Source: an uncultured Alphaproteobacteria bacterium | GTDB lineage: Bacteria; Pseudomonadota; Alphaproteobacteria; Rhizobiales; Xanthobacteraceae | Length of the DNA stretch: 64,000 nt | Assembly (NCBI GenBank): GCA_963798825.1 | Contig: CAWCVE010000003.1 | Span: forward strand, 19,250 to 83,249 | Direction of reading: 5' to 3' | Shown here: one piece after another, positions 32,433 to 34,527 of the stretch | Position numbering within the stretch: the first letter of the stretch is position 1 | Layout of the letters: each line of letters opens with the position of its first letter | Notes under the pieces: model-generated | What the model saw: the letters and a program-made list of their open reading frames with translations, nothing else | Databases searched by the model: none | What the model was told of the DNA's origin: nothing | Position numbers and translations under genes: made by a program

Positions 32433-33338
32433 GTGGAGCATAAGCCGCTCGTAACACTTTATGATGAGCATAAAGGAAAATCATCAGATAAGTGGACCCT
32501 ATATTTCGCAGAATATGATCGTATCCTTCAAGAATATCGCGATATTCCTGTCCGCCTATTAGAAATTGGCGTTCAGAATGGCGGCTCGCTTGAGATTTGG
32601 TTGAAATATTTTCCAAATGCGATGAAGCTTGTAGGATGTGATATCAACCCTTCTTGTGCTCTTTTGAAGTATGAAGATCCTCGTGTGAGTGTCGTAATCG
32701 GAGATGCCAATTCTGATCCTGTTAATCAAAAGATTTTAAACTGCGCTACTGAATTTGATGTGATTATTGATGATGGATCACATCTTTCTGATGATATTAT
32801 ACGCTCGTTTATCCGATATTTTCCGACTTTAATTGATGGCGGCGTTTTCATTGTCGAAGATATGCATTGTTCTTACTGGAAGGGTTGGAAAGGAGGTTTA
32901 TTTTACCCGTTCTCTTCCATTTCTTTTTTCAAAATTCTAGCTGATGTAGTGAACCATGAACACTGGGGCATTAGTCAAGATAGAAGCTATCTTTGCAGAG
33001 ACTTCAGTAAGCAATATAATGTGCAGATTGATGATGCAATGCTGCAACATGTTCATTCCGTTCAGTTTGTTAACTCAATGTGCATTATCCGCAAAGGCAG
33101 TCCAATCAACAATACTCTCGGAATCAGAGTCATCTCTGGCTCATTAGAACAGGTAGTGGCGGTTTCACATCTTAAAGGAAAGGGACCCGATCAGTTAGAC
33201 CAAAAAGAAAACCACTGGTCACTACGCCCTATTGCACTAAGTGGATGGTTTCTAAAAGATGATACTATAAAACGTAATGAACCTTGCCCTTGCGGTTCAG
33301 GAAAGCGATTTAAGCATTGTCATGGTGCTCTGCTCTAA
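32433..33338 (+). CDS. class I SAM-dependent methyltransferase (CmcI/cephalosporin-hydroxylase-like) with C-terminal SEC-C zinc-binding motif
   Basis: [15 protein letters not shown]...GCDI...VIIDDGSH methyltransferase motifs. The C-terminus is [23 protein letters not shown]. GTG start. Confidence 0.75.
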   Translation: [301 protein letters not shown]

Positions 33339-33460
33339 TATTTGAAGAAGCACACCTACAACAAACAAATGATTTAGATCAATAGGCAAACGTTGGCGCG
33401 GACAGACTTTTGTCACTCTCTTGAATACGAAGGGCGTTGGGGGACGAGTTATTCAAAAGT

Positions 33461-33591
33461 TCATAGGGTATCGCAACATCGGCCAAATGGCGTGAAGTAG
33501 GTTTTATCGGGAGTTGTGCCGTCAAGGCTCAAGTGTGGCCTCCGGCCGTTGTAGAAGTCTAGGTAACGGCCGACCGAAGCGCGGGCTTCGT
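33461..33591 (-). pseudogene. C-terminal remnant of an rve-type (IS3-family-like) transposase
   Basis: Translates to ...NEARASVGRYLDFYNGRRPHLSLDGTTPDKTYFTPFGRCCDTL*. An in-frame stop lies immediately upstream and no N-terminal part is present. Confidence 0.55.
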
Positions 33592-33624
33592 TGGTTAGCT
33601 AACTAGCCACTCCTATTTGACAAA

Positions 33625-34527
33625 TTATCGAATTGCTCCGTGACAATGTTTGTATTTTTTTCCCGAACCACAGGGGCACAGACTATTTCTTTTTATATTA
33701 GATTTCACGTTTTCAATATTAGCTGCGAATATCCTTTTTATTATATCTTCGTACTCATCAATAAAGTGTTCATTGCCTGTATTAATGTAAGAGTTTTTGA
33801 GCCGATCTAAATAAATGAGTAAATTGCGTGAATTAAAATCATACATCTGAAAAGATCGAATCTTTTCAGGAATATAAATTTCAAATTTATTTTGTAAAAC
33901 AATTGTTGCCAATCGCTCTTGAACAAAAACCTTAACCTGCTCAGAACGATTTGCGTAGGGAACCAAAGCCTTCAGATCATATTTTTTATCAAATTTATCA
34001 TTCTCCACGAAATCATAAAACTGATCTGCTAATTTAAGCCATTGAAACCAAAATGCTGATTTTGCTACTATATAATTTGAAAAAACTGAATTACTTATAC
34101 TAGTCACCATTGATTTTAAATTAACATTTACTCCCACACGATCAAAAAAATGTTGACTAGCGTTCAGAAGACCGGGCTGAACAATATCACCTTGCAAAAA
34201 GGGATTTTTGTGAATTGCAAGGTCGTGGGTAAATGACGATAGCAGTATTACGTCGGTATTGGATGGGGCTTCCCGAATAATCTTTTTTACATCAGCACCA
34301 TTTAATCCAGTTTTCTTTATAAAATTGGGCGAGAGAAAGCCATAAAAAGTATCCTGTTCCAAATGGTTTGATTTCAAGAAATGCCTTATCACCCAAAATT
34401 CAAACCAATCAGGACGTTTGTTCTCGGTGTTGTCTAATGGAATAAACGCCGGATCTAAAATTCCTCGCGTTTCATCATTATAGTAAATCTGAAATATTTT
34501 TGACTTGGTATCAAATTCATACATCAT
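33625..34527 (-). CDS. protein of unknown function with C-terminal SEC-C zinc-binding motif
   Basis: Start taken at [22 protein letters not shown], with GGAG 6 nt upstream. The C-terminus is [23 protein letters not shown]. The track's N-terminal extension reads into the inverted repeat. Confidence 0.6.
   Translation of the reverse strand: [300 protein letters not shown]

Follow-up and report, generated by a model that had tools for sequence, protein, structure and literature searches.

In a 64,000-nucleotide window of the genome of an uncultured alphaproteobacterium of the Xanthobacteraceae (assembly GCA_963798825.1, contig CAWCVE010000003.1, positions 19,250 to 83,249; the window is this whole stretch, and coordinates are counted from its first letter), two neighbouring genes, here named A and B, encode predicted enzymes that both terminate in a SEC-C motif, the metal-binding tail of SecA. 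We consider it fairly probable that A and B, together with a nearby glycosyltransferase of family GT41 carrying tetratricopeptide repeats (TPRs), belong to a horizontally acquired cytoplasmic glycosylation cassette that has been scrambled by insertion sequences (IS), and that the tails of A and B act in it as docking tags. The features at the centre of this proposal are the following.

32433-33338, + strand: open reading frame (ORF) A (gene A), 301-residue product with a C-terminal SEC-C tail.
33273-33326, + strand: SEC-C motif of A, residues 281-298 (PF02810, E 4.5e-10).
33625-34527, - strand: ORF B (gene B), 300-residue product with a C-terminal SEC-C tail.
33637-33690, - strand: SEC-C motif of B, residues 280-297 (PF02810, E 1.9e-10).
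35005-37398, + strand: TPR-GT41 gene of the OGT/SPINDLY-like type (Glyco_transf_41, 290 bits, cut-off 25); its product contains about 10 TPRs and no SEC-C.

The initial annotation had reported near-identical C-terminal tails on the two products and had recognized in them the SEC-C motif of SecA. The translations indeed end as it quoted them, and both tails exceed the gathering score of the Pfam model PF02810 about twofold (39.6 bits for A and 40.8 bits for B, with a cut-off of 20.4). Each of them is identical at 17 of 21 positions to the Haemophilus influenzae SecA peptide crystallized bound to SecB (1OZB_I), and among the PDB sequences both also match the SecA zinc-domain structures solved by nuclear magnetic resonance and the C-terminal motif of YchJ. 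The four metal ligands, Cys-Cys-Cys-His, are retained in both, and both read GSGK[KR][YF]K, a stretch that keeps the equivalents of the serine S889 and the aromatic residue Y893 of SecA, which have been implicated in metal coordination (10.1101/613315). Judged by their sequences, both tails are true SecA-type metal-binding domains (MBDs). A six-frame scan of the 64 kb window with a regular expression detected no SEC-C motif besides these two. Neither protein is of the YecA/AscA type, as there was no UPF0149 or YecA-length match and the NCBIfam matches covered the tail only, far below their cut-offs.

Concerning the relationship between the two tails, they share 17 of 23 residues, and each resembles H. 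influenzae SecA as closely as it resembles its partner. At the DNA level they differ at many synonymous positions, which argues that they are not recent copies of one another; the idea that either tail arose by recently duplicating its partner was rejected, the DNA identity being only moderate and the differences spread over synonymous sites. In the AlphaFold2 model of B the tail lies outside the alignment coverage and has a predicted local distance difference test score (pLDDT) below 50, which is consistent with a flexible appendage.

A had been described as a CmcI-like methyltransferase dependent on S-adenosylmethionine (SAM). The methyltransferase part of this assignment holds, but CmcI (E 0.004) is not the nearest relative, since MycE (3SSM, E 5e-21) and TylE (8IA9, E 1.6e-18) match the N-terminal domain more closely among the PDB sequences. 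The Pfam match to Methyltransf_24 (PF13578) reaches 24.5 bits, slightly under the cut-off of 26.3; a homology search returned 1,742 matches, which are class I SAM methyltransferases, and the family alignment retains the invariant residues E44, G46, D114, H117 and D143. By sequence, A is a MycE/TylE-like class I SAM sugar O-methyltransferase, an activity that would be expected from its nearest solved relatives and from the rml genes found at locus L038, described below. In 61 of 120 proteins of the A family the C-terminus consists of a coiled-coil-like repeat (ERDxQIxxLN) followed by a SWRxTxPLR motif, while SEC-C is found in only 2 of the top 120 (P0068, which is the copy of A in the related contig L086, and P0074) and Wzt_C in 1 of 120. 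The SEC-C tail of A sits where the SWRxTxPLR module stands in its relatives. One relative of B, P0378, likewise terminates in a coiled coil and a SWRITRPLR end. The C-terminal modules appear exchangeable because SEC-C occupies the SWRxTxPLR position and because this B relative has the same kind of end. The SWRxTxPLR motif, carried by about half of the A-family proteins aligned (P0069-P0187), has no Pfam model, and this end may be another exchangeable terminal tag.

For B, the initial annotation could not assign a domain of roughly 280 residues, and our searches were equally empty: in 32 members of the family the first 275 residues or so gave no Pfam match at E values up to 1 (SEC-C aside), and the N-terminal domain had no sequence match in the PDB. 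The family is nevertheless large. A profile search collected 1,717 representatives at 50% clustering, 1,285 of them at E <=1e-10, and 491 species genomes encode a relative of B, the best homologues coming from Afipia and from metagenome-assembled genomes of Bradyrhizobiaceae. Invariant residues are D31-N32 (within PLDN), E42, G62, S65, F68, K71, N150, A154, W159, F200, E203-R204 and K243. The AlphaFold2 model, with an alpha/beta core, has a pLDDT of 89.3 and a predicted template-modelling score (pTM) of 0.86. When it was compared with the PDB by Foldseek, the best matches were weak (E 0.2-1, template-modelling score, TM, 0.25-0.30) but all had GT-A or nucleotidyl-transferase folds (GtrB, WrtF, ArnC). 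In the viral library BFVD the best matches were proteins of phages and giant viruses that have no annotation (E 3e-8 to 2e-4, TM reaching 0.67), followed more weakly by RgpF-like, GT25 and GT-A proteins (E 0.02-0.07). The structural comparison proposed with the initial annotation yielded a confident model, weakly resembling GT-A folds, but no significant PDB match. According to this model, B is probably a divergent nucleotide-sugar transferase with a GT-A-like predicted fold that lacks the DxD motif. A likeness to DUF4422 found no support in a Pfam hmmscan. SEC-C tails were found on 0 of 61 and 0 of 146 relatives of B.

The grouping of these genes is not restricted to the window. We searched 84 loci encoding relatives of B (about 1.3 Mb) with the window proteins, taking neighbourhoods of 10 kb. 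A GT41 homologue lies in the neighbourhood of B in 19-21 of them, spread over several phyla; it stands directly upstream on the same strand at 10 loci and adjacent on the opposite strand at 2 more. Taxa with this GT41-B combination include Chlorobiaceae, Oxalobacteraceae, Polynucleobacter, Limnohabitans, Comamonadaceae, Desulfovibrionaceae (opposite strand) and Gammaproteobacteria. An A-family methyltransferase is immediately beside B, or fused to it, at 5 loci. Fusions point in the same direction. One ORF of Chlorobiaceae, longer than 1,900 residues (L011, also L009), joins two TPR-GT41 units to a C-terminal B. The L081 ORF consists of TPR-GT41 and B, and that of L069 of GT2, B and Methyltransf_24; GT41-B fusions are present in both Chlorobiaceae and Comamonadaceae. 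Among the top 146 B representatives 34 are multidomain, with GT41 as partner in 10 (TPRs in 12), GT2 in 5, Glyco_tranf_2_5 in 5, Methyltransf_23 in 4 and Methyltransf_11 in 3, and these are the same families as those of the neighbours of B in the window. The grouping of A, B and TPR-GT41 is not due to chance, and the three are genetically coupled across phyla.

This adjacency and fusion across phyla bear out the earlier proposal of a joint system for modifying proteins or glycans, to which A, B and GT41 belong. That proposal had been made to depend on co-occurrence with the transferases nearby, which holds for GT41 and for the A-type methyltransferase, but not for the FkbM-GT2 enzyme, a homologue of which was found near B at 0 of the 84 loci; at L091, however, one of the SEC-C-tagged enzymes includes an FkbM domain. 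Two other associations around B were set aside. The ABC ATPase present in 24 of the 84 loci does not indicate a Wzt/O-antigen pathway, as by NCBIfam it is GldA/DrrA/NodI-like and such ATPases cluster regardless of orthology. Asparagine synthase, GT1 and C-methyltransferase neighbours come from one Steroidobacteraceae clade and represent synteny by descent.

SEC-C tags also recur on enzymes of the same functional range. Within the B-family loci, the only non-SecA proteins with SEC-C are components of the module: at L027 the motif is at the N-terminus of a TPR-GT41 adjoining B, and at L038 a Methyltransf_24 protein adjoining B has a SEC-C tail. On the contig that encodes P0074 (L085), a single operon includes three tagged enzymes beside a TPR-GT41 and a pyruvyl transferase; the tagged enzymes combine SEC-C with GT2 and a sulfotransferase-like domain, SEC-C with TPRs and GT2, and a methyltransferase with SEC-C. 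A homology search with the SEC-C-TPR-GT2 protein returned 1,027 matches, and PF02810 is present in about 108 of the top 120, in every case around nine residues from the N-terminus. Some relatives of this protein are fused to methyltransferases, and methyltransferases are adjacent to it at the sampled loci. Two tagged enzymes accompany three TPR-GT41 genes at L090, one TPR-GT41 is found at the P0261 locus, and two tagged enzymes are adjacent at L091, where the neighbour unites SEC-C, GT1, FkbM and a methyltransferase. From these sequences SEC-C emerges as a recurrent terminal tag of a glycosylation guild, often present on several enzymes per cluster.

Some further observations concern the tagged proteins. 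The products of L085 627-3764 and L090 4504-7635 have about 1,045 residues, with an N-terminal SEC-C, a GT2 domain, a sulfotransferase-like P-loop and a GT8-like C-terminus, and both adjoin a polysaccharide pyruvyl transferase. A 253-residue unannotated protein of the L085 operon was rejected as a relative of B (hhalign probability 0.4%). At L087 274-1152 a small GT2-like protein (P0066), with a catalytic domain unrelated to that of B, carries a tail whose DNA is 87% identical to that of B over 53 nucleotides, a likeness that hints at movement of the tail-coding segment between enzymes. In three metagenomic genomes, genes for SEC-C-TPR-GT2 proteins lie just downstream of rpsF-priB-rpsR-rplI-dnaB, with a GT1 gene in between, at L088 4127-11329, at L089 6102-11347 and at the P0261 locus. 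MBDs bind ribosomes, but this placement could be synteny within one clade.

Concerning the acceptor, flagellin genes occur within 10 kb of the module at 6 loci. In the Oxalobacteraceae locus L028 the order is fliC, flaG, a protein with ALTTAQ repeats, TPR-GT41, B, methyltransferase, fliD, flgL and flgK, and the guanine-plus-cytosine (GC) content of the trio is lower than that of its flanks. Relatives of the window trio occupy the position between fliC and fliD/flgL/flgK in L028, L050, L035 and L081, and in certain Burkholderiales the trio has the classic setting and appearance of an island for flagellin glycosylation. The ALTTAQ protein, encoded at L028 2593-7662 (- strand) between flaG and the GT41-B-methyltransferase trio, has 1,689 residues and 36 repeats, and could be an additional glycosylation substrate. 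Flagellin is the only substrate suggested by gene context; it is exported by the flagellar type III apparatus, not by Sec, and the flagellin-linked trios have no SEC-C tags. Flagellin cannot be the sole acceptor, because modules of Chlorobiaceae and Polynucleobacter have no flagellin genes nearby. Concerning the sugar, rmlA, rmlD and rmlB lie directly upstream of the pair formed by B and the SEC-C-tailed methyltransferase at L038, and RmlC or RmlA-like genes are near B at about 14 loci, which fits the deoxysugar specificity of MycE and TylE.

In the window, the cassette lies in a low-GC island situated between parC (26779-29082) and the side of recO, era, rnc and lepB, as defined by Pfam and NCBIfam matches on the flanks. 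Besides A, B and the TPR-GT41 gene, this region and its surroundings contain the following features.

About 29100-42000: low-GC island (GC 0.40-0.55 against about 0.65 in the flanks), carrying the cassette and IS elements.
30086-30379, + strand: remnant of a second B paralog, the C-terminal 80 residues or so, without SEC-C (hhalign 97.3%, E 1.9e-11).
30562-31236, + strand: small GT-A-like glycosyltransferase, Glyco_tranf_2_5-like (Pfam 26.0 bits, cut-off 27).
31294-32259, + strand: IS481-family transposase between the GT-A gene and A (transpos_IS481, 266 bits against 224).
About 33460-33600, - strand: C-terminal remnant of an IS3/rve-type transposase (NEARASVGRYLDFYNGRRPHLSLDGTTPDKTYF...), between A and B, from the six-frame translation.
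33591-34540: inverted segment (blastn against L086).
37400-37648, + strand: PEP-CTERM/VPLPA-type C-terminal fragment directly past the GT41 stop codon (Pfam 21.2 bits against 20.7).
37740-38168, + strand: orphan divergent FlgC-like rod gene, 340 bp downstream of GT41.
38252-38941, + strand: SOS-response-associated peptidase (SRAP) gene, between GT41 and GT2-FkbM.
39288-39632, - strand: BA14K-family gene, between GT41 and GT2-FkbM.
39898-41466, - strand: fusion of GT2 and FkbM methyltransferase (Glycos_transf_2, 94.9 bits; Methyltransf_21, 42.4 bits).
42102-43139, + strand: IS110-family transposase at the right edge of the island (transpos_IS110, 252.5 bits against 140).
60708-63158, - strand: second TPR-GT41 paralog, 50-78% identical to the product of 35005-37398, in at least 5 ORFs with frameshifts, within another patch of lower GC (0.52-0.54).

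The GT-A, TPR-GT41 and GT2-FkbM neighbours listed in the initial annotation are all in place, interleaved with the IS481, IS110 and SRAP genes. In the PDB the GT41 product matches human OGT (E 8e-146), XcOGT (1.6e-86) and SPINDLY (9e-70). Homologues of the small GT-A enzyme adjoin B genes at L077 (59% identity), L060 and L021, and the pairing of such a Glyco_tranf_2_5-like gene with B, represented in the window by the B remnant, is intact at L077. Membership of the GT2-FkbM gene in the cassette is presumed. The SRAP and BA14K genes are probably unrelated passengers or host genes, and the second GT41 copy is probably a pseudogene. The presence of BA14K, a GC content of about 65% and the origin of the best B homologues suggest a Bradyrhizobiaceae-like alphaproteobacterial host. 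The PEP-CTERM fragment, without start codon or signal peptide, is probably a remnant as well, and PEP-CTERM proteins were rejected as a general substrate, as the motif occurs in the window only and at 0 of 91 related loci. The FlgC-like ORF aligns with FlgC (7BIN_V) near full length (E 3e-5), with the C-terminus of FlgE (E 3e-6) and with Flg_bbr_C (E 0.0015); it is the only flagellar gene found in the 64 kb window. At the island edges there was no sign of a tRNA or att site, in that ARAGORN detected no tRNA in the window and Rfam nothing at E <=0.1 in 28900-45000.

Taken together, it is possible to propose how such a cassette might work. Its core would be formed by the TPR-GT41, the B-family GT-A-like transferase and the MycE/TylE-like sugar O-methyltransferase, with the Glyco_tranf_2_5 GT-A enzyme in the same guild and the GT2-FkbM enzyme probably too. 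GT41 would recognize a protein acceptor through its TPRs and attach the first sugar, B would then add another one, probably a rhamnose-type 6-deoxyhexose, and A would O-methylate the added sugar; the order of the steps and the identity of the sugar are those that the enzyme families and gene contexts suggest. The zinc knuckle would be a self-contained docking tag holding A and B, which have no TPRs, where the substrate is handled. An autonomous docking function is suggested because the tag is found at either terminus, on unrelated catalytic domains and behind flexible linkers, and because it replaces other terminal modules.

Several observations weigh against this cassette proposal, and we gather them here. 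A conserved DxD is absent from the alignment of the B family, and the GT-A fold of B draws on viral models that are unannotated and on weak PDB matches (E >0.2, TM about 0.3). The core chemistry does not require the tag, as all flagellin-linked trios and nearly all relatives of A and B are without it. In the window there is no flagellin gene, no sugar-nucleotide synthesis gene and no exporter, and no substrate was identified there. The Wzt_C fusion of an A relative and the LPS/Arn-like neighbours (LPS, lipopolysaccharide) of SEC-C-TPR-GT2 genes point to polysaccharide acceptors, so that for parts of the guild a polysaccharide acceptor is possible. Finally, the island is broken up by IS481, IS110, an IS3 remnant and an inversion, the second GT41 copy is frameshifted, and B in the contig L086 has a stop codon and a frameshift; the cassette may be decaying in the window.

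Within the proposal, the partner of the tag is a matter on which we can only be tentative. Our own ranking places the anionic inner membrane first, SecB or the ribosome second and TPRs third, each of them individually unlikely and the last markedly so. The leading candidate, for which we would still not give better than a minor chance, is that the basic zinc knuckle binds anionic phospholipids and holds the enzymes at the inner leaflet, near a lipid-linked or membrane-proximal acceptor. SecA in which two metal-binding cysteines were mutated loses the co-purification of phospholipids (10.1101/613315), and in A the tail replaces the coiled-coil and SWRxTxPLR module, one relative having instead the glycan-binding Wzt_C. 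The neighbourhoods of tagged genes also fit a membrane-proximal acceptor: at L088 the SEC-C-TPR-GT2 gene stands among LPS and sugar-modification genes (Arn-like, DegT, GT1), and PS_pyruv_trans and GT8-like genes are present at L085 and L090. However, all characterized GT41 enzymes act on proteins. Neither an initiating phosphoglycosyl transferase nor a flippase nor Wzm/Wzt was detected, and the ABC ATPases in the neighbourhood of B are of the GldA/DrrA/NodI-like kind already mentioned.

A second candidate, put forward by the initial annotation and in our judgement rather unlikely, is that the tails tether A and B to SecB, the ribosome or SecA and thereby allow proteins bound for Sec to be modified before or during export. 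The identity of the tails to the SecB-bound SecA peptide 1OZB, at 17 of 21 positions, speaks for it, as does the finding that YecA/AscA needs its MBD to bind SecB and the 70S ribosome in vitro (10.1101/2020.07.21.215244). A precedent for GT41 enzymes exists in HMW1C/NGT: the HMW1 adhesin is glycosylated and then leaves by two-partner secretion (PMC3012730). Moreover, every cluster in which tags were seen has no flagellin gene, and the trios linked to flagellin are untagged, although these numbers are too small for statistics, and the PEP-CTERM remnant lies just downstream of GT41 in the window. On the other hand, YchJ has the same motif and yet is a redox-sensing transcription factor (PMC13377102), from which it follows that the motif alone does not imply a role in Sec. 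In addition, no Sec component or conserved secreted substrate was present in the tagged clusters examined, and flagellin, the substrate implied by context, takes the flagellar type III route. A broader version, in which SecA-type MBD tags bring GT41, GT2, GT1-FkbM, methyltransferase and B enzymes to pre-proteins bound to SecB or ribosomes, with tagged enzymes serving Sec substrates and untagged ones flagellar type III substrates, appears to us slightly more doubtful still.

The possibility that A and B are merely decaying leftovers of a transferred island, functionless in this host, is an improbable one. It would take the disruption described above at face value, namely the three IS elements or remnants, the inversion, the truncated B paralog, the damaged B copy of L086 and the frameshifted second GT41. 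The most direct view of these events is offered by L086, a metagenomic contig 97% identical to the window, in which A is followed by B on one strand, 50 bp apart, and the IS3 remnant is absent. By blastn, L086 193-1132 corresponds to window 32416-33355 at 97.7%, and L086 1153-2101 to window 34540-33591 at 96.6%, that is, in reverse. The convergent layout of A and B in the window is a secondary inversion, a rearrangement scar, because L086 keeps the two genes co-directional, and in the window the IS3 remnant lies at its junction; the arrangement that the initial annotation had called convergent is real but is no design feature. Against the relic explanation, the window ORFs of A, B and GT41 are all intact, both genomes have preserved the tails, and the ratio of nonsynonymous to synonymous substitution rates (dN/dS) with respect to L086 is 0.36 for A and 0.30 for B, in each case from about 20 differences.

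Alternatively, the tail might be a ligand of TPRs, docking A and B on the array of GT41 or of TPR-GT2 to build a multi-enzyme scaffold, which we regard as quite improbable. SEC-C and TPRs are indeed united in one polypeptide in about 108 of 120 members of one family, TPR-GT41 is present in 3 of the 6 tagged clusters sampled, and in the window the TPR-GT41 is untagged while its two accessory enzymes are tagged; but a tag and TPRs in the same chain would require self-binding or oligomerization, and L038 and L091 have tagged enzymes without GT41 within 10 kb. Least probable of all, and very unlikely, is that the Zn/Fe site of the tail senses metal or redox state and regulates activity rather than localization: in vivo, SecA-like MBDs bind iron, and a role in stress sensing has been proposed for them (10.1101/613315), and YchJ, with the same motif, is redox-regulated, but its switch was mapped to dimerization at Cys149 and not to the SEC-C site (PMC13377102), and placement at either terminus, on diverse catalytic domains and behind flexible linkers, suits docking better than allostery.

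The main known targets of protein glycosylation in the bacterial cytoplasm are flagellins and a small number of adhesins, and how accessory enzymes find their substrates is poorly understood. If the tag docked on SecB or ribosomes, it would open a route for glycosylating Sec substrates before export and would give a concrete cargo to the idea of MBDs as a toolkit. If pre-proteins were targeted in this way throughout the guild, pre- or co-translocational glycosylation of Sec substrates would be widespread in bacteria, through an uncharacterized targeting system. If the tag bound the membrane or TPRs, it would represent a new assembly principle for glycosylation complexes. Either way, a short transplantable tag and defined gene sets are available to experimentalists.

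Compared with known systems, the C-terminal MBD of SecA (1OZB, 1SX1, 1TM6) shares with the tails of A and B the ligands, the serine, the aromatic and basic residues and the position at the extreme terminus past a flexible stretch. The likeness is known from sequence, and the cargo differs, being a sugar O-methyltransferase and a GT-A-like enzyme instead of the SecA ATPase. YecA/AscA and YchJ are, as A and B, non-SecA proteins with a terminal SecA-like MBD; however, the cargo of AscA is a UPF0149 chaperone and that of YchJ a transcription factor, whereas A and B carry it on glycosylation enzymes, of which several are tagged per cluster. That MBDs form a toolkit fused to diverse proteins and bring new functions to Sec has been speculated in print (10.1101/2020.07.21.215244), and our literature search retrieved no paper describing SEC-C-tagged glycosyltransferases or methyltransferases. 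For a tether to Sec, the closest functional precedent is HMW1C/NGT, a cytoplasmic GT41 modification of a protein exported later (PMC3012730). HMW1C, though, has neither long TPR arrays nor SEC-C and adds N-linked hexoses, while the GT41 of the window is OGT/SPINDLY-like with about 10 TPRs.

Concerning A, the catalytic domain of MycE and TylE is homologous and its invariant acidic and histidine residues are conserved; A differs in lacking the N-terminal auxiliary domain of the MycE type, in having the SEC-C tail and in standing in a glycosylation cassette, not in a polyketide cluster. The WbdD terminators of O-antigen chains are methyltransferases positioned for glycan modification by a C-terminal coiled coil and a membrane-binding end. 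The coiled coil with the SWRxTxPLR module, and the Wzt_C fusion, make the A family analogous to them, but A has no kinase domain and no Wzm/Wzt transporter nearby, and its homology is to MycE and TylE instead.

The nearest known relatives of the cassette as a whole are the flagellin glycosylation islands of Enterobacteriaceae, which contain GT41/COG3914 proteins (often fused to methyltransferases), SAM and FkbM methyltransferases, GT2 enzymes and transposases, with atypical GC and signs of horizontal transfer (PMC4875605); a related case is FlmG, a TPR-bearing flagellin glycosyltransferase (PMC7591256). The window cassette shares their gene repertoire and the hallmarks of horizontal transfer, and a FlgC-like ORF is present in its island. 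It differs from them in lying outside a flagellar locus, between parC and recO, with no flagellin gene in 64 kb, and the B family and SEC-C tags have not been reported in those islands. Of known kinds, therefore, are the SecA-type MBD, the GT41 cassettes of the flagellin-island type and the MycE-like methyltransferases. New are the B family, tightly coupled as it is to TPR-GT41 and sugar methyltransferases, the use of SEC-C as a recurrent tag in a glycosylation guild, and the swap of C-terminal modules in a methyltransferase family.

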